A DNA stretch of 64,000 nucleotides from a virus. The stretch covers positions 32,001 to 96,000 of IMG/VR virus record IMGVR_UViG_3300032288_004815. One strand, written 5' to 3'. Shown here in pieces: positions 9,296 through 36,480 of this stretch. The notes below the pieces were generated by a model that had not been told where the DNA came from, made no database searches, and saw nothing but the letters and a program-made list of their open reading frames with translations. How positions within the stretch are numbered: position 1 is the stretch's first letter; the number at the start of each line of letters is the position of its first letter. The position numbers and the translations under genes are program-made.

Positions 9296-9303
9296 ATATT
9301 TTT

Positions 9304-13866: not shown

Positions 13867-13869
13867 AGC

Positions 13870-13897
13870 TAAATACTGTATTAGATTTAATACAGTA
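13870..13897 (+). promoter_or_regulatory. Late-promoter motif TAAATA overlapping a 10-bp perfect hairpin that reaches the ATG
   Basis: tactgtatta-gatt-taatacagta at 13874-13897. Confidence 0.6.
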
Positions 13898-15801: not shown

Positions 15802-16898
15802 GAGCTCGTGAATTTGTTAGAGTCCAGCCGCAAGGCACTTTGACTATATTTGATATAGACGATACACTGATGCATACCACTGCCAAGATTCGTGTAGTGC
15901 GTGATGGCAAAACTGTTAAAGAATTAACTAATCAGCAATTTAACAATTATCGACTCCAACCTGGTGAAGAATTTGATTTCGGTGAATTTAGAGACGCAGA
16001 AAAATTTGCTCAAGAAAGCACACCAATTAAACCAATGATTCGCGAACTCAAAGCTATACTAGCTTATACTCGTGGCCGTGTTATCATGTTGACTGCTAGG
16101 GCTGATTTTGATGATCGCGACACTTTTATTGACACTTTCCAACGATTAGGCATTGACATGAGTCGTGTGCATGTTCATCGTGCAGGCAATTTGCCTGGTA
16201 ATGAAAATCCTGCTTATAAAAAGGCAGTTTGGGTTCGTAGATACTTGGACACTGGCAAATATCGTCAGGTAAGTTTGTATGACGACAGCATGACCAATCT
16301 TCGTGTGTTTAAAGAACTGGCTGCAGAATATCCCCAAGTAACTTTTAATGCTTACTATATTGGGCCCAAAGGTGCTGCCACTGAAGTTGAAGAAGATTAT
16401 CATCCAAATGATACGCCTCCGGGTCCAGAATTTAAACCTACCATGCCCAAAGGAACAGTGAGAGTTGATGTGTCGGATGTGTATGACTGGTACAAACTAG
16501 GGCAGCATATCAGCAATTTAAAGGGACTAGGTCGCCATGACTTTGGACAAGGGCCGCCAAGCACTATTTTTTCTTTTGGCAGTGAAGATGAAGAACATGA
16601 GTATATCAAAGACCTTGAAAAAACAGGACTCACTACCACAGACATAGATCCAGTTGACCCCAATCAACCAAAAGGCATGAAGCGTCAAAAAACTGATCCC
16701 ACATACAATGTGGGCGAAAACTTTGCTGACGGCCGCAACCCTGGACGCAAAGGACTAAGCCAGCGTGTGGGAATTCCCAAAGGTGCTTCCATAGCACAAC
16801 TTGAAAAACTTAAGAACGCTGAAGGCGAACGAGGTCGTATGGCTCGCTGGCAATTGAACATGCGTCGAGGTAAAAATCGTGCAGGATCTAAGAATTGA
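15798..16898 (+). CDS. Modular protein: HAD-superfamily phosphatase plus two C-terminal modules
   Basis: IFDIDDTL, MLTAR, K, LYDDS (HAD motifs I-IV). Confidence 0.8.
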   Translation: MRAREFVRVQPQGTLTIFDIDDTLMHTTAKIRVVRDGKTVKELTNQQFNNYRLQPGEEFDFGEFRDAEKFAQESTPIKPMIRELKAILAYTRGRVIMLTARADFDDRDTFIDTFQRLGIDMSRVHVHRAGNLPGNENPAYKKAVWVRRYLDTGKYRQVSLYDDSMTNLRVFKELAAEYPQVTFNAYYIGPKGAATEVEEDYHPNDTPPGPEFKPTMPKGTVRVDVSDVYDWYKLGQHISNLKGLGRHDFGQGPPSTIFSFGSEDEEHEYIKDLEKTGLTTTDIDPVDPNQPKGMKRQKTDPTYNVGENFADGRNPGRKGLSQRVGIPKGASIAQLEKLKNAEGERGRMARWQLNMRRGKNRAGSKN

Positions 16899-17157
16899 AG
16901 TTGATGTCTATTGCAACTGGCAAACTGAGCCACAGGCCTATAGACTATACATAGACAACGATTTATACACTGAACGCACTTATATTTGGCGCAACCCTCA
17001 TCAGTGGGTGCGTGAAATACTGATAGCAGAACTGACCCCAGGTTCACACTCTATTACTTTGCAGCCTGTAAACAATCAATTCAATGGATTTACACTGGTA
17101 AACTTTGCTGTTGACAACAAGTTTCAAATGTTAGAAAATGGCAAGTTTACAATTTAA
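16879..17157 (+). CDS. Small hypothetical beta-rich protein
   Basis: 92-aa ORF, GTG start. Confidence 0.65.
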   Translation: MQDLRIEVDVYCNWQTEPQAYRLYIDNDLYTERTYIWRNPHQWVREILIAELTPGSHSITLQPVNNQFNGFTLVNFAVDNKFQMLENGKFTI

Positions 17158-17186
17158 ACTAAATATACAATATCTGGGATAAAAAT

Positions 17187-18077
17187 ATGAAAAGTTCACA
17201 ATTTTTAGGCGAAAATTTTGTTGAAGACGCACATTCAGTTCATCAAGATCACGAAGTACAAATGGCTCGTGAAGAATTATATCACTCAGCAGAATACGCA
17301 TTAAGATTACACAAGTTATTACGCAATGTTGATGAACAACAAGGTTTAGAAGGGTGGGTCAGCAGTAAAATTACATTGGCCAGCGACTATCTGAAAACTG
17401 TGTTGGAATACATGGAATACGAACTAATGACTGCGGCTAATCAGCAAACTATGTTACCTATAGCCGAAAATATGCAGCAAGGTGTGGCGGAAGGCTCCGA
17501 ACAAGATGATCGTTATAAAGGTATAACACCTGGAAATGGCAGGAGTGCCGCAAGAAATGCTCATAGATTAGGAAAAACTTATAATAATCCGCACAACCCT
17601 AAGTACCATAAAGCAGCACATGCGGAATGGGAAAAAGAGTATAACAACGAAATAGCACGCCTAAAGAAGAAAAGTGTGGCGGAAGACATGTCTCGAAGAG
17701 TAGCAATTGGACCCGATGGTCAAGTGACAGGAGGTTATCAACCAAGCACTTCTGGTGAACCTGTAGCAACTCAACCAAAAAGTCCTGAAGAAATTGAATT
17801 TGATAAAAAACAAGCAGACTGGCAAAAGCAAAAACAAGAAAATTTATATCAACAAAAATTAAACAATTACATGCGTGGTGATAATAGAGGCGCAGGCTTT
17901 GGTTTTCAACCGAGACCAGAAGATATAGAAAAAGCCAATGCAGCGAGATCAAAATTAGGGATAAACGAAATGTCTGCTGGCAGTGTTGCAACTGTAGTTA
18001 ATCCAACGCCCAAAAACAAAGCAAAAACAGGCACACTGTTTGGTGGTACTTATAAACAACCTAAGGCTAAAAAGTAA
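17187..18077 (+). CDS. Modular hypothetical protein with QGVAEG/SVAED junctions; putative capsid-internal protein
   Basis: N-terminus MKSSQFLGE; TAAATA at 17160; internal repeat junctions. Confidence 0.75.
   Translation: MKSSQFLGENFVEDAHSVHQDHEVQMAREELYHSAEYALRLHKLLRNVDEQQGLEGWVSSKITLASDYLKTVLEYMEYELMTAANQQTMLPIAENMQQGVAEGSEQDDRYKGITPGNGRSAARNAHRLGKTYNNPHNPKYHKAAHAEWEKEYNNEIARLKKKSVAEDMSRRVAIGPDGQVTGGYQPSTSGEPVATQPKSPEEIEFDKKQADWQKQKQENLYQQKLNNYMRGDNRGAGFGFQPRPEDIEKANAARSKLGINEMSAGSVATVVNPTPKNKAKTGTLFGGTYKQPKAKK
17478..17495 (+). repeat. 18-bp junction repeat caaggtgtggcggaaggc (QGVAEG)
   Basis: Variants at 17670, 22989, 23292, 23568 and 23733. Confidence 0.8.
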
Positions 18078-21000
18078 TGCAGGATAAAAATAATCAAGAT
18101 TTTAAAAAAAAATCTTTTAGTGATTATTTTAAAACTTTAGAATCCAGTCACGAGTTTACAAATGAGCAGGCAAGACCGAAGCCCAGCACAGTAGATCAAC
18201 CTAGACCGGGCACTGCACCAACTAGACCTTCACAACCAATACAGGGTCCAAGTCAAGTAAGACCTCCAGGAACAACAGCAGCACCTTCTACGGCTGTAGT
18301 TAGACCTGTACCTACTGCAACCGCACCTGCTCCAGCCGCTGCCCCAGCTGCCGCTGCACCAGCTGGTCAATCTACTAGCACTTTAGGTAGAATTGCTCAG
18401 TCTGTGGCACCTTATGTGGCCAGAGCTGGCGCAGCAATAACCGGTGCATTAACACCAGGTAATGTGGGTCAGCAATACGATTTTCCTCAACAGGGTCCAC
18501 TGCGAGGGTCTGAACTTAATCCGTTAACTAATAAACCGTGGACTAAACAAGAGTTAGACTTATACAAAGCTGATCCCACAAAGTTCCTAAGACCACCTCA
18601 GCAACAACCATCAGCTGATGTCAGAAGACCAGAGCTAGACGATCCATTAAGAAGACAGCCTGCAACTAGACCAGCTGCGCCACAATCTGTGCCTACTTCC
18701 AGTGCAGAAATTAAAGCATTGCAAGATAGATTAAGACAAGCAGGTGCAAATATTAGAACAGATGGAATAATGGGCCCACAAACACGACTGGCCATGCAAC
18801 AGTTTCCGCAAGCTGTTCAACCAGCAGTATCTCAACCTGCTGGATCAGCTACTAGTGCAAGAAGACCAGAACTAGATGATCCATTAAGAAGGCAACCAGT
18901 TAGGCAACCTGTAATTGAGCCAGAACAAAGAGCAGATGTCAGAAGACCAGAACTAGATGATCCATTAAGAAGGCAACCAGTTGCTGTACAAAGTCCAACA
19001 ACCGCAGTTTCTCAAGTAACAGTACCGTCAGACGGTATAGTCCCAACAGGATTACCTATGCCTAGGCCGCCTATAGTGAGACCAGGGCCGTTAACTCCAC
19101 AACCTCCGCCAGGCACACCTGTACCTCCTATTAAGCCTGTCCCTGGCACACCAATACCGCCAAGGCCCGTAGAACAACCAGTACCAGAGCCAAGACCACC
19201 AATAACACCTGTGCCTGGAACACCAATTCCCCCAAGACCGCAACCCGCTCCAGCACCCGCTCCAGCACCAGGTCCTGCACCAGCACCAAGGCCACCAATT
19301 CCTTTACCTGAGCCGGTTACACCTCCAGGACCTCCTACTAGGCCGCAACCAGCGCCGGCTCCTGCTCCAGCACCAAGACCAGAACCAGTAAAACCAACAG
19401 AACCGGTGCCAGCGGCGCCCAGTCCACCATCTGAGTCACCGCCACAAGCTCCTCCTGTGGCGCCACCTAGACCTCTTAGAGTTCCAACAGAAAGACCTGC
19501 AGAACAACCTGCTCCAGCACCTGCTCCGGCTCCAGCACCTGCAGGACCTAAACCACAACCTATGCCAACAGGAGAAACGCCTGCACCTGCTGCTCCTCCT
19601 GTGCCCCCTGCTCCACCAGCTCCACCACTTCCCCCTGAGCCAGGTCCTGTCCCTCCTATTAAGCCTGTACCTCCACCAGAACCAGGCCCGCCTCCTGCCA
19701 CACAACAACCGCCAGCATCTGCGCCCCCAGTTAGACCAGTGCCTGTACCTGTTACACCCGGTGAACCTGAACAGCGCAGAAATTTAGATTTTTGGCGCTG
19801 GGGCGGGCAAAAATCAGGGCCTCCAGGTGCTTATAGGTCTGACAAAGAAATGGGCTATAGAGAAAGTTTTGAACACATGACCGACATGCAGAAAAGCATT
19901 TACATAGTTGAATCTATGTCAAAAGCTGAACAAAAATCAACAGGACCAAAGTTTCCAGGTTATTGGAAAGGCACAGATCCTGCCAGTATGAGTCGCAATA
20001 GAATGGTGGGCGGCAGCGAACAACAGCAAGAAAATATACTCAGTGATTTAGAAAGCACAATGAAAAAAACTAGGACACTGAAACAGTTAAAAGAAAAATG
20101 GCAAAAATTTAAAGAAGGCGATGTAATTTCCTTTCCAAGTAGCTCCTCCAATGATCCCAAATTTAAAAATTTAAGTATAGTTCCCACTGAGCCTGCAACT
20201 GCCGGCACTACATCACCACCGTTGGCAGAACCATCAGGTGTTCAATCAGCAACTGGCAAACCCACAACAAGTTCTACAACTGGCCAATCGACTGTAAAAC
20301 CAGAGATGTCTGTGGGAGATCGATATAGACAAAATTTAGGAGCTGTGCCTAATACACAATCAAGTGCTGCTCAATCAAGTGCTGTTCAAACTACAGGGAA
20401 ACCTAGTAATGTTGTTGAATTACCTAAAAGCACAGTATCTACTTCTACCACAACAGGAGCGGCGCCTGCTCAATCCAGTAATGTTGTGCAGATGCCTAGA
20501 TCAGCCCCGGCTGCTGCCGGCTCTTCAATTTTAAAAGGTATTGGGCAAACTGCATCAAAAGTTCTCGGGCCATTGGGAGTAGTGGGATTGGCAACAAACG
20601 CAGCGGCCGTGGCAGATTATGTGCAAAGTCCTGAAGTAGATTTAGGCCGCAGACTAGCTTCTGGTGAAGGATCGGCAGCAGAAAAACACGCTGCCTGGCT
20701 TCAAAAAAGTACAAACATAAGTCAGTACACCCCAACAGCACAGGAAGCTGCAAATTTACTGGCCAGCGGTGATAAAAGAACCATTGATATCTTTGGTGGA
20801 CAAGATAAATTAAAGCAACTGGCGGGCACAACAAAAGCTGCTGAACCCAGTGCTGGTAGTGTAGATAAGATTGTACAAAAAGCCGTTGATGTTGTAAATC
20901 CAAAACAATATCAATACAATCAATTGACTCCAGCGCAACTTGAATACATAAAAAAACGATATGCTGAAGCAGGACAAGGCGCAGGTAGTGATGCACAAAG

Positions 21001-22456
21001 AGTAATTTCAAATGCATTAGACTTTAATAACTTACCAGCAAATAACAGAGAAGCAATTTTTAAATCTTTAGAAGATCCTCGCATTAAACAAGAAATTCAA
21101 CAGTTAGAAAAATCAATGCCACAAAGACCTGGAAGCATAACTAGCACGCAGCCAGGAGCTAAACCATATGGCAACACTGTATTGGATGTAACAGATTCCA
21201 ATTCTGTGGCTGAATACAATAGAATAATTGGTGGTAGGGAGGGAGGAGCAAAAGGATATGATGCTGCATTTATAGCTCCAGGTTATAAAACTCCTGAACA
21301 ATGGTCTAAACAAACATTGGGAGTAGCAAAGAAATTATCTGACATGACATTAGATGAAGTTTTGCGATATCAAAAATTCAGAGGACCTCAGGACAATGCA
21401 GCTGGCAAATATGGTATGGTGCAAAGCACAGTGTTTGGAGAACTTAGAAACGGCAAATTTACCGGTTTAATAAATGATTTGGGAATAACTCCAGAAAATC
21501 TAAAAAGTCAAAAGTTTAGTTCTGATTTTCAAGAACGCCTCCAAGCTGCATTATTCCAAAGACAACAGGCTTCACTTCGACAAAATGGATTAGAATTAAC
21601 TCCTGCAAACCTATATGGATCACATAGTATAGGTGCTGGAGGTCATGCTCAGGTAATGCAAGCAGCAAAAACACAACCCAATACACCAGTAGTTGAAATA
21701 TTAGCTAATAATGCAGCAACAGCTAGAAATTTACAACCAGGATCTCGAGCATACAATGAATTTGTTAAGAAGCACAGCGAGTTTCTAACTAAAAGAAATC
21801 CACACCTACTTACTCCAGCAGGACAGTGGTATAATAGAATGGTGCAGATAGTTGATAATAAAACTGCGGTAAGGGAAACAAGAATGACAAACAAAAAAGA
21901 TGTGGCTGACAGATATAGTTTTGATGAGTTTGACGATTTAGTAAGAAGATTAGGTCAACGGGCTAAAGAACAAGAACGCCGATATGGTCCGGTGGATATC
22001 AAACAATTAGCACAAAGACTGCGCGACATTGCCGACAAGGATGACAAGCCTATCAAAGAACAAGACCCGGCAACTGATCCCACTCGTCAGTCAACTTCAC
22101 CAACTTTACAGGCTACTAGTGCCAACCAACAGGACACTAATCCAAATCAACAGATCACAAGCCAGACTGGCACTAGTCAAGAGCGTAAAGAAAAACAAGC
22201 ACAAGCACAAGACACTGCCACTGCTAAAACCATGGCCAGTAGTTTGACCACAGTTGTTCCTCCTGGAACTAACACAAACGCATTGGCGCAGGCCATAGTA
22301 AATACAAATGACGGTAGACCTTTAAGTGCCGACCAACAAAAAGCTATCAGTGTATTACAACCATTGGTTTTAAAAGCAGCAGAAACTCCAACAACTGCTA
22401 GCGCATTAGGTAGTGCTTTGCAAAAAGCTGGTATGTTAAGTAAACAAGGAAAATAA
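18077..22456 (+). CDS. 1459-aa Pro-rich modular protein with peptidoglycan-binding and lysozyme-like domains
   Basis: IKALQDRL...DGIMGPQT (PG-binding); GGREGG...MTLDEV...AAGKYGM...QERL (lysozyme-like); long PAPAP tract. Confidence 0.7.
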   Translation: MQDKNNQDFKKKSFSDYFKTLESSHEFTNEQARPKPSTVDQPRPGTAPTRPSQPIQGPSQVRPPGTTAAPSTAVVRPVPTATAPAPAAAPAAAAPAGQSTSTLGRIAQSVAPYVARAGAAITGALTPGNVGQQYDFPQQGPLRGSELNPLTNKPWTKQELDLYKADPTKFLRPPQQQPSADVRRPELDDPLRRQPATRPAAPQSVPTSSAEIKALQDRLRQAGANIRTDGIMGPQTRLAMQQFPQAVQPAVSQPAGSATSARRPELDDPLRRQPVRQPVIEPEQRADVRRPELDDPLRRQPVAVQSPTTAVSQVTVPSDGIVPTGLPMPRPPIVRPGPLTPQPPPGTPVPPIKPVPGTPIPPRPVEQPVPEPRPPITPVPGTPIPPRPQPAPAPAPAPGPAPAPRPPIPLPEPVTPPGPPTRPQPAPAPAPAPRPEPVKPTEPVPAAPSPPSESPPQAPPVAPPRPLRVPTERPAEQPAPAPAPAPAPAGPKPQPMPTGETPAPAAPPVPPAPPAPPLPPEPGPVPPIKPVPPPEPGPPPATQQPPASAPPVRPVPVPVTPGEPEQRRNLDFWRWGGQKSGPPGAYRSDKEMGYRESFEHMTDMQKSIYIVESMSKAEQKSTGPKFPGYWKGTDPASMSRNRMVGGSEQQQENILSDLESTMKKTRTLKQLKEKWQKFKEGDVISFPSSSSNDPKFKNLSIVPTEPATAGTTSPPLAEPSGVQSATGKPTTSSTTGQSTVKPEMSVGDRYRQNLGAVPNTQSSAAQSSAVQTTGKPSNVVELPKSTVSTSTTTGAAPAQSSNVVQMPRSAPAAAGSSILKGIGQTASKVLGPLGVVGLATNAAAVADYVQSPEVDLGRRLASGEGSAAEKHAAWLQKSTNISQYTPTAQEAANLLASGDKRTIDIFGGQDKLKQLAGTTKAAEPSAGSVDKIVQKAVDVVNPKQYQYNQLTPAQLEYIKKRYAEAGQGAGSDAQRVISNALDFNNLPANNREAIFKSLEDPRIKQEIQQLEKSMPQRPGSITSTQPGAKPYGNTVLDVTDSNSVAEYNRIIGGREGGAKGYDAAFIAPGYKTPEQWSKQTLGVAKKLSDMTLDEVLRYQKFRGPQDNAAGKYGMVQSTVFGELRNGKFTGLINDLGITPENLKSQKFSSDFQERLQAALFQRQQASLRQNGLELTPANLYGSHSIGAGGHAQVMQAAKTQPNTPVVEILANNAATARNLQPGSRAYNEFVKKHSEFLTKRNPHLLTPAGQWYNRMVQIVDNKTAVRETRMTNKKDVADRYSFDEFDDLVRRLGQRAKEQERRYGPVDIKQLAQRLRDIADKDDKPIKEQDPATDPTRQSTSPTLQATSANQQDTNPNQQITSQTGTSQERKEKQAQAQDTATAKTMASSLTTVVPPGTNTNALAQAIVNTNDGRPLSADQQKAISVLQPLVLKAAETPTTASALGSALQKAGMLSKQGK
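18623..18978 (+). repeat. Three in-frame ~38-bp repeats encoding RRPELDDPLRRQP
   Basis: Copies start at 18623, 18860 and 18941. Confidence 0.9.
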
Positions 22457-22460
22457 AATT

Positions 22461-24416
22461 ATGTTTCTCTCGGATTTATACAATAAAAGAAATGTAAATG
22501 AAAACATAAGTCCCATTGATTTGGCAGAACTGTTGTTTAATGCAGTGCTGAAAAACTTTCCTGAAGCAATCACTCGCTATGGTCACGAAGTAGTAGGTGA
22601 TGCTGTGTTAGATTATGCCGAAGAAGCCACAGATTTGCGTAGCATGAGTGACATTGATATTGCTGCACAAGAAATATTAGACGACTTAGCAAACTATCAA
22701 GGAGATCGTACTAACGAACTAGAACCTGAAAAAAATAATGCTATTTCTGAAAATCTACGCAAATGGTTCAAAGAAAAATGGGTTCGTTTTGGTCCTGATG
22801 GTAAGATACGGGGAGCTTGTGCAAGGGGCGACGACAGCGAAGGCAAACCAAAGTGTTTACCACAAAGTAAAGCCCATGCATTAGGTAAAGCAGGTCGTGC
22901 CAGTGCAGCGGCAAGAAAACGCAGACAAGATCCAAATCCTGAACGCAGTGGTGCAGCTATCAATGTTGCCACTAAAAAGAAATCAAACGAAGGTGTGGCG
23001 GAGGGCTTCAGTGTAGTAAAAAGTGACTATGACTTAGATCAGATGGTGCTGACTTTTGACATTGAAGGTCCGCGTAAAGGCAAACCTTTACAGTTCACCT
23101 ACTGGGACTATGACGAAGATTTCGCCAACGCTGAACGCCGAGATGTGTTCGATCAACTGCAACAACAATCCTGGTATGCGGGTCTGGATCATCCTACCAA
23201 GATGGAAATACTTGATGCATCATACAAGGCTATCAGAGGTGAAGAACCCAGCGAATACAAACCTACAGTAGATGATGAACCTTTGGACGAACAAGGTGTG
23301 TCGGAAGGCTCTCTAGATGAACTACATGCTGACATGTCAAATGTATATAATAAACTTGCTCCCGGAATTGAAAAATACAAAGATAAATCTGGTGCCGATA
23401 AATTATATCAATCATTATTTTCAGTGGCACAACAACACGGTGCTAGCGCCATATTTGAATTCAAAAGAATGTTAAATAACGCCAGAAATAGTGCTCATAT
23501 GGACTATGATACTAATCCCGGTGGGTTCGAAAATTGGTTCTGGTATTTGCCATTCGCAGATGACGAGCAAGGTGTAGCAGAAGGCTTACAGCAGACTTTA
23601 CGCAAGATTGTCCCTGGATATGCCAAGCGTGAGATTGATAAAAAGATGGACACTGGAAAGTTTGGTAAGACTGATGCAGATAAAGATGCAAACTTCTATC
23701 GTTATAAAAAGATCCAAGACAAGATCAAAGGGCAAGGTATAGTGGAAGAAAAATGTCCACATTGTGGTGGCCCTTCCTTTAACAATTTAATTTTAGCAGA
23801 AAAACAGGATGCTTGTTATCACAAGGTAAAAAGTAGATACAAAGTATGGCCCAGTGCTTACGCTAGTGGTGCATTGGTTCAGTGTCGCAAAAAAGGTGCA
23901 GCCAATTGGGGCAAAAAGAAAACCAATGAGACTAAACAGCCGAGCTTGGATTCAGACACAGTTAAAAGATTACAAAATTACCTTAATATTAAGTTTGGAG
24001 CAAATTTAGATGTAGATGGCGTATTAGGCAATCTTACAAAAAAATCTATCAAGAAATTTATGAAAAAAACAAAAACTAAACTTGCTCCTGAGCCAGATAG
24101 AACCACCGCAGTACAGGGTAAGACAAAAAAAGTAAATGAAACAAGATTTTATTTTTATCCAAAAGCCACAGATGCCAGCACACTGGTCAACGAGTTTAAG
24201 TTAACCAAAGACAACCAAGGTTGGTACTTAACTGAATCACAAGGACCTGCAGCAGTGCTAGAAGCACAACGAGCATTTGGTATTCCAAAAATCAAAGAAG
24301 TCAAATTAAAAGAATTTAATCTGGCAGCTTTCAGTGGCAGTGCTGCAATTAAAGGCGATGACAATGTACTAAGTCCCATTGGCAGCAAGGCATTGAAAGG
24401 TCGTAAACATGCGTAA
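22461..24416 (+). CDS. Modular hypothetical polyprotein-like protein with four (Q/E)GVAEG-type junctions and a PG-binding module
   Basis: EGVAEG, QGVSEG, QGVAEG, QGIVEE; VKRLQNYLN...VDGVLGNLT. Confidence 0.75.
   Translation: MFLSDLYNKRNVNENISPIDLAELLFNAVLKNFPEAITRYGHEVVGDAVLDYAEEATDLRSMSDIDIAAQEILDDLANYQGDRTNELEPEKNNAISENLRKWFKEKWVRFGPDGKIRGACARGDDSEGKPKCLPQSKAHALGKAGRASAAARKRRQDPNPERSGAAINVATKKKSNEGVAEGFSVVKSDYDLDQMVLTFDIEGPRKGKPLQFTYWDYDEDFANAERRDVFDQLQQQSWYAGLDHPTKMEILDASYKAIRGEEPSEYKPTVDDEPLDEQGVSEGSLDELHADMSNVYNKLAPGIEKYKDKSGADKLYQSLFSVAQQHGASAIFEFKRMLNNARNSAHMDYDTNPGGFENWFWYLPFADDEQGVAEGLQQTLRKIVPGYAKREIDKKMDTGKFGKTDADKDANFYRYKKIQDKIKGQGIVEEKCPHCGGPSFNNLILAEKQDACYHKVKSRYKVWPSAYASGALVQCRKKGAANWGKKKTNETKQPSLDSDTVKRLQNYLNIKFGANLDVDGVLGNLTKKSIKKFMKKTKTKLAPEPDRTTAVQGKTKKVNETRFYFYPKATDASTLVNEFKLTKDNQGWYLTESQGPAAVLEAQRAFGIPKIKEVKLKEFNLAAFSGSAAIKGDDNVLSPIGSKALKGRKHA
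22989..23750 (+). repeat. Array of four 18-bp junction repeats separating unrelated in-frame modules
   Basis: gaaggtgtggcggagggc 22989, caaggtgtgtcggaaggc 23292, caaggtgtagcagaaggc 23568, caaggtatagtggaagaa 23733; periods 303, 276 and 165 bp. Confidence 0.8.
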
Positions 24417-24837
24417 CTTTATTAATATCATGGAGGCAGCAGCAAAAAACTGTCCTGTGGCCACACACAACATTGATGTTAATCTTAAAAATAGGCAAAA
24501 AGCTATAGATTCTTATCATTATGGTCCAGCTAATCCCGACAAACCCGACAACTACTGGCGGCAAGCAGCTAAAAGATTCAAAGTTTCTGAAGCAGTGGCC
24601 AAGACCATGCAGTGCGCTAACTGTGCAGCTTTTGATGTCAGTGACAGTATGCGTGAATGCATTGCCAGCGGTATTCGTGGCAGCGAAACAAACATTGATG
24701 CTAATGCTAGTATAAATATTGCAGACATAGGCTATTGTAATTTCCTGCATTTCAAATGTGCAGGAGCAAGAAGTTGTGCTGCATGGATCACCGGCGGACC
24801 AATTACAGAAAAAGACAAAAATAAAAAGGCAGCATAA
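24409..24837 (+). CDS. Cys-rich protein, possible HiPIP-like Fe-S or Zn binder
   Basis: CANC...GYC...C...SCAAW. Confidence 0.55.
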   Translation: MRNFINIMEAAAKNCPVATHNIDVNLKNRQKAIDSYHYGPANPDKPDNYWRQAAKRFKVSEAVAKTMQCANCAAFDVSDSMRECIASGIRGSETNIDANASINIADIGYCNFLHFKCAGARSCAAWITGGPITEKDKNKKAA

Positions 24838-24838
24838 A

Positions 24839-29258: not shown

Positions 29259-31206
29259 GTTTACGACCTTTCAATGCCTTGCTGCCAATGGGACTTAGTA
29301 CATTGTCATCGCCTTTAATTGCAGCACTGCCACTGAAAGCTGCCAGATTAAATTCTTTTAATTTGACTTCTTTGATTTTTGGAATACCAAATGCTCGTTG
29401 TGCTTCTAGCACTGCTGCAGGTCCTTGTGATTCAGTTAAGTACCAACCTTGGTTGTCTTTGGTTAACTTAAACTCGTTGACCAGTGTGCTGGCATCTGTG
29501 GCTTTTGGATAAAAATAAAATCTTGTTTCATTTACTTTTTTTGTCTTACCCTGTACTGCGGTGGTTCTATCTGGCTCAGGAGCAAGTTTAGTTTTTGTTT
29601 TTTTCATAAATTTCTTGATAGATTTTTTTGTAAGATTGCCTAATACGCCATCTACATCTAAATTTGCTCCAAACTTAATATTAAGGTAATTTTGTAATCT
29701 TTTAACTGTGTCTGAATCCAAGCTCGGCTGTTTAGTCTCATTGGTTTTCTTTTTGCCCCAATTGGCTGCACCTTTTTTGCGACACTGAACCAATGCACCA
29801 CTAGCGTAAGCACTGGGCCATACTTTGTATCTACTTTTTACCTTGTGATAACAAGCATCCTGTTTTTCTGCTAAAATTAAATTGTTAAAGGAAGGGCCAC
29901 CACAATGTGGACATTTTTCTTCCACTATACCTTGCCCTTTGATCTTGTCTTGGATCTTTTTATAACGATAGAAGTTTGCATCTTTATCTGCATCAGTCTT
30001 ACCAAACTTTCCAGTGTCCATCTTTTTATCAATCTCACGCTTGGCATATCCAGGGACAATCTTGCGTAAAGTCTGCTGTAAGCCTTCTGCTACACCTTGC
30101 TCGTCATCTGCGAATGGCAAATACCAGAACCAATTTTCGAACCCACCGGGATTAGTATCATAGTCCATATGAGCACTATTTCTGGCGTTATTTAACATTC
30201 TTTTGAATTCAAATATGGCGCTAGCACCGTGTTGTTGTGCCACTGAAAATAATGATTGATATAATTTATCGGCACCAGATTTATCTTTGTATTTTTCAAT
30301 TCCGGGAGCAAGTTTATTATATACATTTGACATGTCAGCATGTAGTTCATCTAGAGAGCCTTCCGACACACCTTGTTCGTCCAAAGGTTCATCATCTACT
30401 GTAGGTTTGTATTCGCTGGGTTCTTCACCTCTGATAGCCTTGTATGATGCATCAAGTATTTCCATCTTGGTAGGATGATCCAGACCCGCATACCAGGATT
30501 GTTGTTGCAGTTGATCGAACACATCTCGGCGTTCAGCGTTGGCGAAATCTTCGTCATAGTCCCAGTAGGTGAACTGTAAAGGTTTGCCTTTACGCGGACC
30601 TTCAATGTCAAAAGTCAGCACCATCTGATCTAAGTCATAGTCACTTTTTACTACACTGAAGCCCTCCGCCACACCTTCGTTTGATTTCTTTTTAGTGGCA
30701 ACATTGATAGCTGCACCACTGCGTTCAGGATTTGGATCTTGTCTGCGTTTTCTTGCCGCTGCACTGGCACGACCTGCTTTACCTAATGCATGGGCTTTAC
30801 TTTGTGGTAAACACTTTGGTTTGCCTTCGCTGTCGTCGCCCCTTGCACAAGCTCCCCGTATCTTACCATCAGGACCAAAACGAACCCATTTTTCTTTGAA
30901 CCATTTGCGTAGATTTTCAGAAATAGCATTATTTTTTTCAGGTTCTAGTTCGTTAGTACGATCTCCTTGATAGTTTGCTAAGTCGTCTAATATTTCTTGT
31001 GCAGCAATATCAATGTCACTCATGCTACGCAAATCTGTGGCTTCTTCGGCATAATCTAACACAGCATCACCTACTACTTCGTGACCATAGCGAGTGATTG
31101 CTTCAGGAAAGTTTTTCAGCACTGCATTAAACAACAGTTCTGCCAAATCAATGGGACTTATGTTTTCATTTACATTTCTTTTATTGTATAAATCCGAGAG
31201 AAACAT
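29251..31206 (-). CDS. Modular QGVAEG-junction protein (mirror copy)
   Basis: Identical to 22461..24416. Confidence 0.75.
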   Translation of the reverse strand: MFLSDLYNKRNVNENISPIDLAELLFNAVLKNFPEAITRYGHEVVGDAVLDYAEEATDLRSMSDIDIAAQEILDDLANYQGDRTNELEPEKNNAISENLRKWFKEKWVRFGPDGKIRGACARGDDSEGKPKCLPQSKAHALGKAGRASAAARKRRQDPNPERSGAAINVATKKKSNEGVAEGFSVVKSDYDLDQMVLTFDIEGPRKGKPLQFTYWDYDEDFANAERRDVFDQLQQQSWYAGLDHPTKMEILDASYKAIRGEEPSEYKPTVDDEPLDEQGVSEGSLDELHADMSNVYNKLAPGIEKYKDKSGADKLYQSLFSVAQQHGASAIFEFKRMLNNARNSAHMDYDTNPGGFENWFWYLPFADDEQGVAEGLQQTLRKIVPGYAKREIDKKMDTGKFGKTDADKDANFYRYKKIQDKIKGQGIVEEKCPHCGGPSFNNLILAEKQDACYHKVKSRYKVWPSAYASGALVQCRKKGAANWGKKKTNETKQPSLDSDTVKRLQNYLNIKFGANLDVDGVLGNLTKKSIKKFMKKTKTKLAPEPDRTTAVQGKTKKVNETRFYFYPKATDASTLVNEFKLTKDNQGWYLTESQGPAAVLEAQRAFGIPKIKEVKLKEFNLAAFSGSAAIKGDDNVLSPIGSKALKGRKHA

Positions 31207-31210
31207 AATT

Positions 31211-34200
31211 TTATTTTCCTTGTTTACTTAACATACCAGCTTTTTGCAAAGCACTACCTAATGCGCTAGCAGTTGTTGGAGTTTCTGCTGCTTTTAAAAC
31301 CAATGGTTGTAATACACTGATAGCTTTTTGTTGGTCGGCACTTAAAGGTCTACCGTCATTTGTATTTACTATGGCCTGCGCCAATGCGTTTGTGTTAGTT
31401 CCAGGAGGAACAACTGTGGTCAAACTACTGGCCATGGTTTTAGCAGTGGCAGTGTCTTGTGCTTGTGCTTGTTTTTCTTTACGCTCTTGACTAGTGCCAG
31501 TCTGGCTTGTGATCTGTTGATTTGGATTAGTGTCCTGTTGGTTGGCACTAGTAGCCTGTAAAGTTGGTGAAGTTGACTGACGAGTGGGATCAGTTGCCGG
31601 GTCTTGTTCTTTGATAGGCTTGTCATCCTTGTCGGCAATGTCGCGCAGTCTTTGTGCTAATTGTTTGATATCCACCGGACCATATCGGCGTTCTTGTTCT
31701 TTAGCCCGTTGACCTAATCTTCTTACTAAATCGTCAAACTCATCAAAACTATATCTGTCAGCCACATCTTTTTTGTTTGTCATTCTTGTTTCCCTTACCG
31801 CAGTTTTATTATCAACTATCTGCACCATTCTATTATACCACTGTCCTGCTGGAGTAAGTAGGTGTGGATTTCTTTTAGTTAGAAACTCGCTGTGCTTCTT
31901 AACAAATTCATTGTATGCTCGAGATCCTGGTTGTAAATTTCTAGCTGTTGCTGCATTATTAGCTAATATTTCAACTACTGGTGTATTGGGTTGTGTTTTT
32001 GCTGCTTGCATTACCTGAGCATGACCTCCAGCACCTATACTATGTGATCCATATAGGTTTGCAGGAGTTAATTCTAATCCATTTTGTCGAAGTGAAGCCT
32101 GTTGTCTTTGGAATAATGCAGCTTGGAGGCGTTCTTGAAAATCAGAACTAAACTTTTGACTTTTTAGATTTTCTGGAGTTATTCCCAAATCATTTATTAA
32201 ACCGGTAAATTTGCCGTTTCTAAGTTCTCCAAACACTGTGCTTTGCACCATACCATATTTGCCAGCTGCATTGTCCTGAGGTCCTCTGAATTTTTGATAT
32301 CGCAAAACTTCATCTAATGTCATGTCAGATAATTTCTTTGCTACTCCCAATGTTTGTTTAGACCATTGTTCAGGAGTTTTATAACCTGGAGCTATAAATG
32401 CAGCATCATATCCTTTTGCTCCTCCCTCCCTACCACCAATTATTCTATTGTATTCAGCCACAGAATTGGAATCTGTTACATCCAATACAGTGTTGCCATA
32501 TGGTTTAGCTCCTGGCTGCGTGCTAGTTATGCTTCCAGGTCTTTGTGGCATTGATTTTTCTAACTGTTGAATTTCTTGTTTAATGCGAGGATCTTCTAAA
32601 GATTTAAAAATTGCTTCTCTGTTATTTGCTGGTAAGTTATTAAAGTCTAATGCATTTGAAATTACTCTTTGTGCATCACTACCTGCGCCTTGTCCTGCTT
32701 CAGCATATCGTTTTTTTATGTATTCAAGTTGCGCTGGAGTCAATTGATTGTATTGATATTGTTTTGGATTTACAACATCAACGGCTTTTTGTACAATCTT
32801 ATCTACACTACCAGCACTGGGTTCAGCAGCTTTTGTTGTGCCCGCCAGTTGCTTTAATTTATCTTGTCCACCAAAGATATCAATGGTTCTTTTATCACCG
32901 CTGGCCAGTAAATTTGCAGCTTCCTGTGCTGTTGGGGTGTACTGACTTATGTTTGTACTTTTTTGAAGCCAGGCAGCGTGTTTTTCTGCTGCCGATCCTT
33001 CACCAGAAGCTAGTCTGCGGCCTAAATCTACTTCAGGACTTTGCACATAATCTGCCACGGCCGCTGCGTTTGTTGCCAATCCCACTACTCCCAATGGCCC
33101 GAGAACTTTTGATGCAGTTTGCCCAATACCTTTTAAAATTGAAGAGCCGGCAGCAGCCGGGGCTGATCTAGGCATCTGCACAACATTACTGGATTGAGCA
33201 GGCGCCGCTCCTGTTGTGGTAGAAGTAGATACTGTGCTTTTAGGTAATTCAACAACATTACTAGGTTTCCCTGTAGTTTGAACAGCACTTGATTGAGCAG
33301 CACTTGATTGTGTATTAGGCACAGCTCCTAAATTTTGTCTATATCGATCTCCCACAGACATCTCTGGTTTTACAGTCGATTGGCCAGTTGTAGAACTTGT
33401 TGTGGGTTTGCCAGTTGCTGATTGAACACCTGATGGTTCTGCCAACGGTGGTGATGTAGTGCCGGCAGTTGCAGGCTCAGTGGGAACTATACTTAAATTT
33501 TTAAATTTGGGATCATTGGAGGAGCTACTTGGAAAGGAAATTACATCGCCTTCTTTAAATTTTTGCCATTTTTCTTTTAACTGTTTCAGTGTCCTAGTTT
33601 TTTTCATTGTGCTTTCTAAATCACTGAGTATATTTTCTTGCTGTTGTTCGCTGCCGCCCACCATTCTATTGCGACTCATACTGGCAGGATCTGTGCCTTT
33701 CCAATAACCTGGAAACTTTGGTCCTGTTGATTTTTGTTCAGCTTTTGACATAGATTCAACTATGTAAATGCTTTTCTGCATGTCGGTCATGTGTTCAAAA
33801 CTTTCTCTATAGCCCATTTCTTTGTCAGACCTATAAGCACCTGGAGGCCCTGATTTTTGCCCGCCCCAGCGCCAAAAATCTAAATTTCTGCGCTGTTCAG
33901 GTTCACCGGGTGTAACAGGTACAGGCACTGGTCTAACTGGGGGCGCAGATGCTGGCGGTTGTTGTGTGGCAGGAGGCGGGCCTGGTTCTGGTGGAGGTAC
34001 AGGCTTAATAGGAGGGACAGGACCTGGCTCAGGGGGAAGTGGTGGAGCTGGTGGAGCAGGGGGCACAGGAGGAGCAGCAGGTGCAGGCGTTTCTCCTGTT
34101 GGCATAGGTTGTGGTTTAGGTCCTGCAGGTGCTGGAGCCGGAGCAGGTGCTGGAGCAGGTTGTTCTGCAGGTCTTTCTGTTGGAACTCTAAGAGGTCTAG

Positions 34201-35590
34201 GTGGCGCCACAGGAGGAGCTTGTGGCGGTGACTCAGATGGTGGACTGGGCGCCGCTGGCACCGGTTCTGTTGGTTTTACTGGTTCTGGTCTTGGTGCTGG
34301 AGCAGGAGCCGGCGCTGGTTGCGGCCTAGTAGGAGGTCCTGGAGGTGTAACCGGCTCAGGTAAAGGAATTGGTGGCCTTGGTGCTGGTGCAGGACCTGGT
34401 GCTGGAGCGGGTGCTGGAGCGGGTTGCGGTCTTGGGGGAATTGGTGTTCCAGGCACAGGTGTTATTGGTGGTCTTGGCTCTGGTACTGGTTGTTCTACGG
34501 GCCTTGGCGGTATTGGTGTGCCAGGGACAGGCTTAATAGGAGGTACAGGTGTGCCTGGCGGAGGTTGTGGAGTTAACGGCCCTGGTCTCACTATAGGCGG
34601 CCTAGGCATAGGTAATCCTGTTGGGACTATACCGTCTGACGGTACTGTTACTTGAGAAACTGCGGTTGTTGGACTTTGTACAGCAACTGGTTGCCTTCTT
34701 AATGGATCATCTAGTTCTGGTCTTCTGACATCTGCTCTTTGTTCTGGCTCAATTACAGGTTGCCTAACTGGTTGCCTTCTTAATGGATCATCTAGTTCTG
34801 GTCTTCTTGCACTAGTAGCTGATCCAGCAGGTTGAGATACTGCTGGTTGAACAGCTTGCGGAAACTGTTGCATGGCCAGTCGTGTTTGTGGGCCCATTAT
34901 TCCATCTGTTCTAATATTTGCACCTGCTTGTCTTAATCTATCTTGCAATGCTTTAATTTCTGCACTGGAAGTAGGCACAGATTGTGGCGCAGCTGGTCTA
35001 GTTGCAGGCTGTCTTCTTAATGGATCGTCTAGCTCTGGTCTTCTGACATCAGCTGATGGTTGTTGCTGAGGTGGTCTTAGGAACTTTGTGGGATCAGCTT
35101 TGTATAAGTCTAACTCTTGTTTAGTCCACGGTTTATTAGTTAACGGATTAAGTTCAGACCCTCGCAGTGGACCCTGTTGAGGAAAATCGTATTGCTGACC
35201 CACATTACCTGGTGTTAATGCACCGGTTATTGCTGCGCCAGCTCTGGCCACATAAGGTGCCACAGACTGAGCAATTCTACCTAAAGTGCTAGTAGATTGA
35301 CCAGCTGGTGCAGCGGCAGCTGGGGCAGCGGCTGGAGCAGGTGCGGTTGCAGTAGGTACAGGTCTAACTACAGCCGTAGAAGGTGCTGCTGTTGTTCCTG
35401 GAGGTCTTACTTGACTTGGACCCTGTATTGGTTGTGAAGGTCTAGTTGGTGCAGTGCCCGGTCTAGGTTGATCTACTGTGCTGGGCTTCGGTCTTGCCTG
35501 CTCATTTGTAAACTCGTGACTGGATTCTAAAGTTTTAAAATAATCACTAAAAGATTTTTTTTTAAAATCTTGATTATTTTTATCCTGCAT
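31211..35590 (-). CDS. Pro-rich PG-binding/lysozyme-like protein (mirror copy)
   Basis: Identical to 18077..22456. Confidence 0.7.
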   Translation of the reverse strand: MQDKNNQDFKKKSFSDYFKTLESSHEFTNEQARPKPSTVDQPRPGTAPTRPSQPIQGPSQVRPPGTTAAPSTAVVRPVPTATAPAPAAAPAAAAPAGQSTSTLGRIAQSVAPYVARAGAAITGALTPGNVGQQYDFPQQGPLRGSELNPLTNKPWTKQELDLYKADPTKFLRPPQQQPSADVRRPELDDPLRRQPATRPAAPQSVPTSSAEIKALQDRLRQAGANIRTDGIMGPQTRLAMQQFPQAVQPAVSQPAGSATSARRPELDDPLRRQPVRQPVIEPEQRADVRRPELDDPLRRQPVAVQSPTTAVSQVTVPSDGIVPTGLPMPRPPIVRPGPLTPQPPPGTPVPPIKPVPGTPIPPRPVEQPVPEPRPPITPVPGTPIPPRPQPAPAPAPAPGPAPAPRPPIPLPEPVTPPGPPTRPQPAPAPAPAPRPEPVKPTEPVPAAPSPPSESPPQAPPVAPPRPLRVPTERPAEQPAPAPAPAPAPAGPKPQPMPTGETPAPAAPPVPPAPPAPPLPPEPGPVPPIKPVPPPEPGPPPATQQPPASAPPVRPVPVPVTPGEPEQRRNLDFWRWGGQKSGPPGAYRSDKEMGYRESFEHMTDMQKSIYIVESMSKAEQKSTGPKFPGYWKGTDPASMSRNRMVGGSEQQQENILSDLESTMKKTRTLKQLKEKWQKFKEGDVISFPSSSSNDPKFKNLSIVPTEPATAGTTSPPLAEPSGVQSATGKPTTSSTTGQSTVKPEMSVGDRYRQNLGAVPNTQSSAAQSSAVQTTGKPSNVVELPKSTVSTSTTTGAAPAQSSNVVQMPRSAPAAAGSSILKGIGQTASKVLGPLGVVGLATNAAAVADYVQSPEVDLGRRLASGEGSAAEKHAAWLQKSTNISQYTPTAQEAANLLASGDKRTIDIFGGQDKLKQLAGTTKAAEPSAGSVDKIVQKAVDVVNPKQYQYNQLTPAQLEYIKKRYAEAGQGAGSDAQRVISNALDFNNLPANNREAIFKSLEDPRIKQEIQQLEKSMPQRPGSITSTQPGAKPYGNTVLDVTDSNSVAEYNRIIGGREGGAKGYDAAFIAPGYKTPEQWSKQTLGVAKKLSDMTLDEVLRYQKFRGPQDNAAGKYGMVQSTVFGELRNGKFTGLINDLGITPENLKSQKFSSDFQERLQAALFQRQQASLRQNGLELTPANLYGSHSIGAGGHAQVMQAAKTQPNTPVVEILANNAATARNLQPGSRAYNEFVKKHSEFLTKRNPHLLTPAGQWYNRMVQIVDNKTAVRETRMTNKKDVADRYSFDEFDDLVRRLGQRAKEQERRYGPVDIKQLAQRLRDIADKDDKPIKEQDPATDPTRQSTSPTLQATSANQQDTNPNQQITSQTGTSQERKEKQAQAQDTATAKTMASSLTTVVPPGTNTNALAQAIVNTNDGRPLSADQQKAISVLQPLVLKAAETPTTASALGSALQKAGMLSKQGK

Positions 35591-36480
35591 TACTTTTTAG
35601 CCTTAGGTTGTTTATAAGTACCACCAAACAGTGTGCCTGTTTTTGCTTTGTTTTTGGGCGTTGGATTAACTACAGTTGCAACACTGCCAGCAGACATTTC
35701 GTTTATCCCTAATTTTGATCTCGCTGCATTGGCTTTTTCTATATCTTCTGGTCTCGGTTGAAAACCAAAGCCTGCGCCTCTATTATCACCACGCATGTAA
35801 TTGTTTAATTTTTGTTGATATAAATTTTCTTGTTTTTGCTTTTGCCAGTCTGCTTGTTTTTTATCAAATTCAATTTCTTCAGGACTTTTTGGTTGAGTTG
35901 CTACAGGTTCACCAGAAGTGCTTGGTTGATAACCTCCTGTCACTTGACCATCGGGTCCAATTGCTACTCTTCGAGACATGTCTTCCGCCACACTTTTCTT
36001 CTTTAGGCGTGCTATTTCGTTGTTATACTCTTTTTCCCATTCCGCATGTGCTGCTTTATGGTACTTAGGGTTGTGCGGATTATTATAAGTTTTTCCTAAT
36101 CTATGAGCATTTCTTGCGGCACTCCTGCCATTTCCAGGTGTTATACCTTTATAACGATCATCTTGTTCGGAGCCTTCCGCCACACCTTGCTGCATATTTT
36201 CGGCTATAGGTAACATAGTTTGCTGATTAGCCGCAGTCATTAGTTCGTATTCCATGTATTCCAACACAGTTTTCAGATAGTCGCTGGCCAATGTAATTTT
36301 ACTGCTGACCCACCCTTCTAAACCTTGTTGTTCATCAACATTGCGTAATAACTTGTGTAATCTTAATGCGTATTCTGCTGAGTGATATAATTCTTCACGA
36401 GCCATTTGTACTTCGTGATCTTGATGAACTGAATGTGCGTCTTCAACAAAATTTTCGCCTAAAAATTGTGAACTTTTCAT
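35590..36480 (-). CDS. Modular hypothetical protein (mirror copy)
   Basis: Identical to 17187..18077. Confidence 0.75.
   Translation of the reverse strand: MKSSQFLGENFVEDAHSVHQDHEVQMAREELYHSAEYALRLHKLLRNVDEQQGLEGWVSSKITLASDYLKTVLEYMEYELMTAANQQTMLPIAENMQQGVAEGSEQDDRYKGITPGNGRSAARNAHRLGKTYNNPHNPKYHKAAHAEWEKEYNNEIARLKKKSVAEDMSRRVAIGPDGQVTGGYQPSTSGEPVATQPKSPEEIEFDKKQADWQKQKQENLYQQKLNNYMRGDNRGAGFGFQPRPEDIEKANAARSKLGINEMSAGSVATVVNPTPKNKAKTGTLFGGTYKQPKAKK

Follow-up and report, generated by a model that had tools for sequence, protein, structure and literature searches.

The internal proteins of T-even phages share only their leader, the capsid targeting sequence, are packaged and injected, and inhibit distinct GmrSD restriction enzymes; the locus encoding them is a hotspot (PMC3012670, PMC12373910). 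In T4-type phages, short repeats in a hyperplastic region, known as PeSLs, mediate indels and replacements of small genes between relatives and make mini-circles (Arbiol et al. 2010, PMC2839356; see also PMC4122927). In the gp38 adhesins of T-even phages, conserved in-frame glycine-rich motifs part variable segments and are the sites at which exchanges occur; these motifs make up the structural core of a single domain, their order is fixed and deletions are not viable (PMC3157838). Here we analyse a short DNA word, CAAGGTGTGGCGGAAGGC (QGVAEG in translation), which recurs in frame between unrelated protein modules of two viral genes. The genes lie in a 64,000-nucleotide stretch of the IMG/VR record IMGVR_UViG_3300032288_004815 (positions 32,001 to 96,000), referred to as the window and numbered from its first letter. 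We propose that this one sequence is probably both an in-frame recombination junction and a candidate protease-site linker.

Copies of the junction in the window

Ten matches to CAAGGTGTGGCGGAAGGC and close variants were found in the window at three or fewer mismatches, compared with 0.01 expected, and none of 100 shuffles reached 10. The independent copies are five, not 10, and map to the plus strand (17478, 17670, 22989, 23292 and 23568), because the five minus-strand matches are mirror images in a palindrome. This palindrome, in which positions 1-26833 are mirrored in 26834-53666, escaped an earlier note on the same DNA. The copies are as follows.

17478..17495, plus strand: junction copy 1, CAAGGTGTGGCGGAAGGC, QGVAEG, the canonical form, 0 mismatches
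17670..17687, plus strand: junction copy 2, AAAAGTGTGGCGGAAGAC, KSVAED, 3 mismatches, at first and second codon positions only, wobble bases kept
22989..23006, plus strand: junction copy 3, GAAGGTGTGGCGGAGGGC, EGVAEG, 2 mismatches, follows module A
23292..23309, plus strand: junction copy 4, CAAGGTGTGTCGGAAGGC, QGVSEG, 1 mismatch
23568..23585, plus strand: junction copy 5, CAAGGTGTAGCAGAAGGC, QGVAEG, 2 mismatches, both synonymous
23733..23750, plus strand: degenerate junction copy 6, CAAGGTATAGTGGAAGAA, QGIVEE, 5 mismatches
30082..36189, minus strand: mirror duplicates of copies 1-5, due to the assembly palindrome and not independent

All six plus-strand copies are in the frame of open reading frames (ORFs) 17187-18077 or 22461-24416. 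They are spaced by 192, 303, 276 and 165 bp, each a multiple of 3, and the segments between them are mutually unrelated (best pairwise BLASTP E-value 0.07). Copies 1 and 2 share a 12-nt core. Valine is encoded by GTG in four of five copies and alanine by GCG in three of four, and the single serine codon is TCG, whereas these codons account for 20% of Val, 7% of Ala and 4% of Ser codons in the phage's own genome. The earlier note was right about the common phase and exact periods, about the unrelated flanking modules and about the G-ending codons that depart from the genome preference. It had counted six copies, five of which (0-3 mismatches) lie far above chance, but the sixth, at 23733, is degenerate. 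Copy 6 is not significant by sequence alone, yet it is the right-hand breakpoint of a cassette replacement in an X10 strain contig described below.

Spread and reading frame

The repeat also occurs in related phages, the first place where the earlier note had proposed to look for it. The exact 17-mer AAGGTGTGGCGGAAGGC is present in at least 120 IMG/VR stretches, and 165 of 168 exact copies read as QGVAEG in the longest open frame, the median length of which is 601 aa. At the remaining three (loci L148, L188 and L200) another frame is longest; these three may be chance occurrences, remnants of decayed genes or a sign that the word has another use. Across 220 viral loci (2.63 Mb), 465 matches were obtained at three or fewer mismatches, and 451 of them are in frame in ORFs of at least 150 aa. 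The in-frame copies define 198 distinct proteins with 1-9 junctions each, spaced by a median of 79 aa (range 22-386). A bacterial control of 596 billion bases gave 120 single 17-mer matches, mostly in GC-rich genomes (median GC 0.63). The QGVAEG frame is used in 46 of these 120, as chance would give; the bacterial matches therefore served as a control only.

Two near-complete relatives, G003 and G004 (342 and 352 kb), carry 7 and 8 copies, mostly within ~10 kb, and a reversed-pattern control gave no match in either. Copies always map to one strand of a record (7/0, 8/0, 0/3 and 0/4). An outlying exact copy in G003 is found far from the main cluster, in an 820-aa ORF (L345 2119-4581; G003:C1:270618-273080) featuring a long Gly/Ala-rich zipper-like stretch. 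The neighbours of this ORF, judged by eye only, resemble a large terminase subunit and a single-stranded-DNA-binding protein.

Conservation at the nucleotide level

One hundred loci (L001-L100) were picked from IMG/VR by means of peptides located elsewhere in the proteins, without reference to the motif. For the 651-aa protein encoded by ORF 22461-24416, 80 of 542 confirmed relatives were used, and 20 for the 296-aa protein encoded by ORF 17187-18077. The long ORFs of these loci contain 97 distinct G-V-[A/S]-E-G sites, the codons of which are CAA in 64, GGT in 91, GTG in 83, GCG in 80, GAA in 94 and GGC in 72 instances. The corresponding background frequencies are.43 for GGT,.19 for GTG,.08 for GCG,.81 for GAA and.28 for GGC. 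For the peptide GVAEG itself (92 cases), the spelling GGT GTG GCG GAA GGC is used 74-97% of the time. Information content falls to ~0 within 3 nt beyond the motif, and the flanks (36 nt on either side) carry almost none. In contrast, free variation at synonymous sites is observed in three invariant control peptides of these proteins, WPSAYASGALV, KWVRFGPDG and GKPKCLP, each with 65-66 instances. For instance, the Val of WPSAYASGALV is encoded by GTT in 35, GTA in 22, GTC in 5 and GTG in 4 cases.

At the orthologous seam that follows module A of the 651-aa protein, neighbouring codons vary between loci, whereas GGT GTG GCG GAA is kept. The variants of the Ala codon at this seam (ACG, TCG, ATG and GTG) are single-base changes that retain the third-position G. 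Because the seam codons are fixed while their neighbours vary, the junction evolves more slowly than the surrounding synonymous sites and its rare codons are held. The junction is constrained as DNA, not just as a peptide; the constraint that the earlier note had suspected from the codons of four copies is supported by comparisons with the codon table and with the control peptides.

Cassette loss, gain and replacement

The junction-bearing genes of the window and their cassettes are listed below.

17187..18077, plus strand: 296-aa carrier gene, with a conserved N-terminal module, one cassette and a conserved C-terminal part
17493..17684, plus strand: 64-aa cassette between junctions 1 and 2 (after Glu to Glu)
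22461..24416, plus strand: 651-aa multi-module gene
23004..23306, plus strand: 101-aa cassette with DYDLDQ; the same cassette, bounded by junctions, occurs in unrelated proteins at L005, L006 and L008
23307..23582, plus strand: 92-aa cassette, with a homologue in a different protein at L060
23583..23747, plus strand: 55-aa cassette, swapped for another sequence in X10 record 6

Positions 16800-24600 were compared with contigs from four freshwater or aquatic metagenome runs, which belong to four studies. Three exchanges were delimited on both sides.

17481/2 to 17674/5: exactly 192 bp skipped, with 11-12 letters fitting both sides (X10 record 1 and X11 record 7, two studies)
17498-17663: 166 nt replaced by 460 nt, a gain of 98 codons (X2 record 13)
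23587-23732: 146 nt replaced by 209 nt, a gain of 21 codons, in a contig the match of which starts at junction 4, at 23304 (X10 record 6)

The 11-12 letters at the joint of the 192-bp deletion are the shared core of junctions 1 and 2. Moreover, X2 records 18 and 19 break or branch at junction 4, an X10 contig diverges right after junction 5, and an X4 contig is unlike the window from 23583 on. Flank identity of the exchanged contigs ranges from 98.4 to 99.7%. Cassette turnover is fast, as several changes occurred at 0.3-1.6% flank divergence; apart from these, length varies within the 7.8 kb only by small indels, all in Pro/Ala-rich repeats of a 1459-aa ORF. Joints with a short side of 33 nt or less (17495 to 23286, 17496 to 23592 and 17508 to 23724) were set aside, because they possibly stem from other phages sharing the junction alone.

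Exchanges are also observed among homologous proteins. Alleles of the 296-aa protein with identical N- and C-terminal parts carry no cassette (P0004, 232 aa), a different cassette (P0002, 311 aa) or three different cassettes (P0003, 394 aa), and 71 architectures, made from 84 segment clusters between the same terminal parts, are found among its 120 best relatives. Similarly, two orthologues of the 651-aa gene, L002 (885 aa) and L003 (1215 aa), have the same ends and other internal cassettes between junction motifs. At the cassette level, 158 of 264 inter-junction cassettes match another protein over their full length, in 382 pairs (440 partial matches, covering less than 80% of the cassette, were dropped). 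A junction with three or fewer mismatches is present at both projected ends in 166 pairs and at one end in 124. The pattern [VILM]xE occurs at the two projected ends in 313 and 332 of the 382 pairs, compared with 0.18-0.21 at random positions. Both 50-aa flanks are dissimilar in 313 of the 338 pairs that could be evaluated.

We hold with high confidence that the word is an in-frame, DNA-level junction at which cassettes are exchanged. The earlier note had guessed that the repeat is a cassette breakpoint and had proposed a test on aligned orthologues; near-identical strains, the alleles and orthologues just described and hundreds of viral contigs all bear this out.

Protein-level constraint and a putative protease site

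Across the in-frame copies (451), the Glu codon is changed 3 times at its first two bases and 27 times at its wobble base. The second base of the Val codon is changed twice, and changes of its first base mostly lead to Met. Codons around the core are loose, with Q, E or K before it and G, D, A, E or S after it. Since the Glu and Val bases are protected and the outer codons are loose, the peptide constraint amounts to hydrophobic-x-Glu with a small residue after it.

T4 gp21 cuts after Leu/Ile-x-Glu, and the targeting leader of T4 is short and ends in hydrophobic-x-Glu. Peptidase_S77, the family of T4 gp21, is found in both near-complete relatives, G003 and G004 (E = 6e-25 and 9e-28), where it adjoins a scaffold-like ORF and the gene for a gp23-type capsid protein (E = 1e-100). 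Neither Peptidase_S77 nor gp23 was found in the window's record and two other fragments, which are 17-33% complete. An N-terminal [LIVMF]xE is present in 100 of 137 junction-bearing proteins; among other ORFs the figure is 467 of 1439 (odds ratio 5.6, p = 3e-20). The leader Glu is mostly at residue 8-9, and P3 is occupied by Leu in 51 of 84 cases and by Ile in 20; in the window, ORF 17187 begins with MKSSQFLGEN and ORF 13897 with MFAHELYEQ. In the giant phage SPN3US, the gp21-related protease gp245 cuts after A-X-E, prefers Val at P4 and makes several cuts per precursor (PMC10052503).

On these grounds, we have moderate confidence in the junction as a putative protease site, and in proteolysis and packaging of the proteins. 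Of the earlier suggestion that a prohead protease cuts at V-A-E, the fit to the class of enzyme stands, through the protected Glu and P3 residues, the leaders and the protease of the near-complete relatives; cleavage at V-A-E is plausible, and the phage's own genome may encode such a protease.

Modules of the junction-bearing proteins

The 651-aa protein consists, in order, of an N-terminal helical domain, module A, three cassettes, a DUF5872-like module, a PG_binding-like module and a C-terminal domain. Pfam yields sub-threshold DUF5872 and PG_binding_1 matches only, and none on the 296-aa ORF. Among cultured phages, the 651-aa protein matches 365 records, mostly cyanophages, solely over residues ~437-521 (the DUF5872-like module), and the 296-aa protein has no match; no cultured relative of the phage was found by similarity of the window proteins. 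The 296-aa protein has 357 relatives, none carrying a name, and those listed (P0002-P0040) share a basic tail (...AGSVA.VVNP.PKNKAK.GTLFGGTYKQ...) whatever cassettes precede it.

Module A (KWFKEKWVRFGPDG...CLP..., window 22740-22900) reaches a summed contig depth of 271 in the metagenomes, compared with ~12 for the rest of the gene. In some loci, a stop codon follows module A, which is also the C-terminal end of other proteins, and the seam after it has more than 30 different partners across loci.

In 68 non-redundant polyproteins, Pfam identified DUF6321 in 5, GNAT in 4 and DUF5872 in 3, and Sigma70_r4, the SutA RNAP-binding domain (SutA-RBD), CTP_transf (cytidylyltransferase) and NT5C in 1 each; none of the 15 families found in these proteins is a peptidase. 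Cassettes are mostly of unknown type; the Pfam matches give a hint that transcription and modification are targeted, with Sigma70_r4, SutA-RBD and GNAT suggesting transcription and acetylation.

In an AlphaFold2 model (mean pLDDT 62.8, pTM 0.31), the folded units of the 651-aa protein are parted by stretches of low-confidence coil (residues 163-182, 263-280, 351-367 and 425-429). The junctions occupy residues 177-182, 278-283, 370-375 and 425-430, and three of these four fall in, or border on, segments of pLDDT <50 that part folded units. The third (residues 370-375) is at the start of a predicted helix, next to a low-confidence segment. The model is weak at residues 95-180, because the MAFFT alignment used for folding misplaced many module-A fragments.

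A model for the junction and alternative explanations

In the model we propose, a 15-17-nt core (AAGGTGTGGCGGAAGG[C]) would be common to the seams between small coding cassettes (median ~79 aa) in a multi-module gene cluster. As the flanks are unrelated, a crossover between two copies must fall inside the core, and would result in a precise in-frame deletion, insertion or replacement. Exchange may take place within one genome or between co-infecting phages. The agent would most likely be the general recombination and replication machinery, through UvsX/RecA-type strand exchange, annealing or template switching at microhomology. Wobble bases would be fixed by frequent turnover combined with the need for near-identity, in that near-canonical copies alone would keep exchanging. 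The same codons would spell [Q/E/K]-G-[V/M]-A-E-[G/small], a putatively exposed linker fitting the hydrophobic-x-Glu specificity of the gp21 family. Polyproteins would most likely be targeted into the prohead via their L/I-x-E leaders, cut at each junction to give 6-12 kDa products, and delivered with the DNA, like the T4 internal proteins.

Tyrosine (PF00589) and serine (PF00239) recombinases were found in none of five records, two of which are 95-100% complete, while the recombinase profile controls matched in 12-14 of 14 genomes (PF00589 in 14/14). A RecA/UvsX-like gene (PF00154) is present in both near-complete relatives, and the 17-mer, as read from its letters, features no dyad symmetry or self-complementarity. 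General recombination is favoured because tyrosine and serine recombinases are missing, a RecA/UvsX-like gene is present, the site has neither a dyad nor conserved flanks, and copies are direct. The same evidence (no PF00589 or PF00239, a non-palindromic site and a RecA/UvsX-type recombinase instead) tells against the integron-like mechanism envisaged in the earlier note.

The junction might serve recombination only, QGVAEG being a flexible, tolerated linker and the proteins acting uncut or being cut by another enzyme, for example the HExxH module at the C-terminus of ORF 13897-15801, an end supported by weak PHROG matches. The DNA-level and breakpoint evidence fits this explanation equally well, and polyvalent phage proteins, composed of 2-15 domains, are in some cases delivered unprocessed and in others predicted to self-process by metallopeptidase domains (PMC5512222). 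We nonetheless consider it rather doubtful: Glu and the hydrophobic P3 residue are protected far beyond the needs of a spacer, the leaders and the gp21-family protease of the relatives point to one proteolytic system, and most polyproteins carry no peptidase module. Conversely, the word might be a protease site only, its DNA identity being a passive remnant of the recent shared ancestry of the linkers and playing no part in recombination. Such a view is very unlikely, even though the peptide fits Glu-specific prohead proteases such as SPN3US gp245, with its A-X-E sites and Val at P4 (PMC10052503). Deletion and replacement breakpoints between strains fall inside the repeat, rare codons persist in the junction whereas synonymous sites in its flanks are saturated, and a convergent protein motif would follow codon usage.

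A dedicated integron- or shufflon-like system, in which the 15-17-nt core is bound by a recombinase or nuclease of an unrecognised kind that cuts cassettes out and inserts them, possibly in circular form, would account for the core length, the sharp edges of conservation and the crossover within a 12-nt core, all of which resemble a recombinase core site. Copies in each genome are direct and clustered within ~10 kb, and most genes of these phages lack a known function. The negative recombinase searches, with their matched controls, and a site without dyad symmetry or any conserved accessory sequence in its flanks make such a system decidedly improbable. An 'integron inside a gene' is the bolder variant: the 17-mer would be the core of a dedicated exchange machinery, circles would perhaps pass between co-infecting giant phages, and the word would have been co-opted as a putative protease site releasing cassette products in the capsid or host; we regard this variant as unlikely. 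An RNA- or translation-level signal at domain boundaries could be a Shine-Dalgarno-like AGGTG pause, a two-tetrad G-quadruplex (GG-N-GG-N-GG-N-GG), or an RNA- or protein-binding site aiding co-translational folding. The word is indeed G-rich, with AGGTG and four GG runs, two of which are completed by the wobble G of GTG and GCG. However, the fourth run is the most variable (in the 451 copies, position 17 is changed 89 times and position 18 124 times), the least variable bases are the 'loop' bases, which the protein code explains, no co-variation is seen between positions 9 and 12, and the breakpoints found at the site would have no explanation. Rfam gave no match at E <= 1 over 13800-24900. 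A signal of this type is exceedingly improbable, and the G-quadruplex and the Shine-Dalgarno pause in particular do not fit the variable fourth run and the lack of co-variation.

Several points weigh against the combined junction and protease-site model proposed here. The junction is the commonest module seam but not the sole one, and many boundaries have no recognisable junction. Thus, 92 of the 382 full-length cassette pairs have a junction with three or fewer mismatches at neither end, internal BLAST high-scoring segment pairs end within 5 aa of a junction in 8-16% of cases compared with 4% at random (2-4-fold), and what comes after module A is often a stop codon or some other sequence, not a junction. 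The strain evidence consists of assembled contigs, not raw reads, and P0002 and P0003, which come from the same kind of assemblies, partly depend on the metagenome contig evidence. The word size of the assembler probably exceeds the 12-nt core shared by the joined junctions, which would speak against chimeric joins. Seventeen nucleotides are short for RecA/UvsX-type exchange, and selection for recombinability is a second-order effect, inseparable here from homogenisation by frequent exchange. The presumed maturation site of the capsid protein in the relatives, identified by eye, is L-K-E, not V-A-E, so that the junction fits a class of site and is not a demonstrated one. The record to which the window belongs is ~33% complete, and neither a protease nor a capsid gene is found on it. 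Cleavage, packaging, injection, the type of recombination and the roles of the cassettes are what we infer from these data.

Record and gene neighbourhood

The whole record (117,666 bp) is a palindrome made of a 58,833-bp unique sequence and its reverse complement, without spacer. Within the window, positions 1-26833 and 26834-53666 form a perfect zero-spacer inverted repeat (axis 26833/26834), so that all features of 1-26833 are duplicated on the opposite strand. IMG/VR classes the record as 'inverted terminal repeats'; the palindrome is most likely, indeed almost certainly, a fold-back assembly or amplification artefact. The source is probably a roughly 350-kb freshwater phage with a T4-type head.

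Two neighbouring ORFs, 13897-15801 and 15798-16898, have N-termini similar to those of the junction genes and mixed modules, and contain no junction copies at five or fewer mismatches. The former features a cytidylyltransferase N-terminus and, by weak PHROG matches, the HExxH C-terminus; the N-terminus of the latter is weakly phosphatase- or kinase-like. The 1459-aa ORF (18077-22456, plus strand), located between the two junction genes, has a Pro/Ala-rich low-complexity centre of 50% GC, three copies of the RRPELDDPLRRQP motif and a PG_binding_1 match just under the Pfam threshold. Metagenome strains differ in this ORF by small in-frame indels of 15, 6, 12, 81 and 219 bp. Its product is possibly ejected and targeted to the cell wall.

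A chaperone or unfoldase pair (8465-11598, plus strand) is located a short way upstream of the polyprotein cluster: DnaJ (DnaJ and DnaJ_C), followed directly by a two-ring ClpA/ClpB-type AAA+ protein (Clp_N, AAA, AAA_2 and ClpB_D2-small). A ferritin/Dps-like gene (24758-25273, plus strand) and a gene for a radical SAM and SPASM enzyme (25274-26392, plus strand) are located directly downstream of the polyprotein genes. ORF 1581-2540 (plus strand) encodes a periplasmic solute receptor of the TctC/Bug family (E = 4.5e-21). This family is expanded in Betaproteobacteria, and the receptor may be a hint to the host.

Comparison with known systems

In the literature searched, a limited collection, we did not find a junction of this kind described; GVAEG does not appear there in any phage context, and DUF5872/DUF6321 are mentioned for an algal virus only. 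If the model is true, the junction is a natural in-frame assembly standard, which keeps the frame, provides the crossover point and probably marks the protease cut, and it explains the rapid reshuffling, in very large phages, of small, probably injected proteins for host takeover or anti-defence. The idea of linker sequences between phage modules would be extended from genes to protein domains. Inter-junction segments could be treated as autonomous domains, and the 17-mer would be a handle with which to search metagenomes for the many small phage domains that are still uncharacterised. A design of the carrier-plus-cassette type might also be used for loading cargo proteins into T4-type capsids.

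Among the nearest known systems are the T4 internal proteins (Ip1-3 and relatives), with which the system shares T4-type head genes in the near-complete phages, diverse, fast-evolving, non-conserved genes and a hydrophobic-x-Glu leader. Except for the DUF5872-like module, the window proteins have no sequence similarity to those of cultured phages. Each T4 internal protein has its own small gene and is cleaved once, after the leader, whereas here many modules are strung in one frame and parted by a repeated, DNA-conserved internal site. A feature shared with PeSLs is that indels and replacements between close relatives (strain contigs and P0002-P0004) are bounded by the repeat. However, PeSLs are intergenic promoter and terminator stem-loops that move whole genes, whereas the 17-nt word lacks a stem-loop and dyad symmetry, lies within coding sequence (451 of 465 copies inside ORFs of at least 150 aa) and moves domains in frame. 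For the gp38 adhesins, the text of the paper describes no DNA-level conservation (PMC3157838), and here autonomous domains occur in free order and number.

The ejection and inner-body proteins of giant phages (SPN3US, with gp245, phiKZ and 201phi2-1) resemble the putatively cleaved proteins analysed here in that they belong to large phages; many such head-internal proteins are cut after x-x-Glu, at several sites per precursor, by a gp21-related protease (PMC10052503). The A-X-E sites described in that source are loose propeptide motifs, in contrast to the fixed hexapeptide and 17-mer that delimit exchangeable cassettes. As in integron arrays and the R64 shufflon, exchangeable units are parted by a short repeated site, and their loss, gain and reordering generate diversity. 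Unlike integrons, there is no IntI-type recombinase in the five records and no palindromic attC, and cassettes are domains within one ORF, not promoterless genes. Unlike the R64 shufflon, there is no Rci-type recombinase in these records and all sites are direct, which excludes shufflon-type inversion. With polyvalent proteins, our set shares the combination of unrelated effector-like domains, the presumed co-delivery with DNA and mosaicism between relatives (Iyer et al. 2017, PMC5512222). The modules are here mostly small and of unknown type, the domains characteristic of polyvalent proteins (metallopeptidase, ParB and others) being represented by no more than the weak HExxH module of ORF 13897-15801, and a conserved junction is not part of the polyvalent concept as set out in that paper (PMC5512222). 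What sets this locus apart from every system compared here is the combination of three features: an in-frame word that is fixed and conserved at the nucleotide level, cassettes in free order and a probable role in cleavage.

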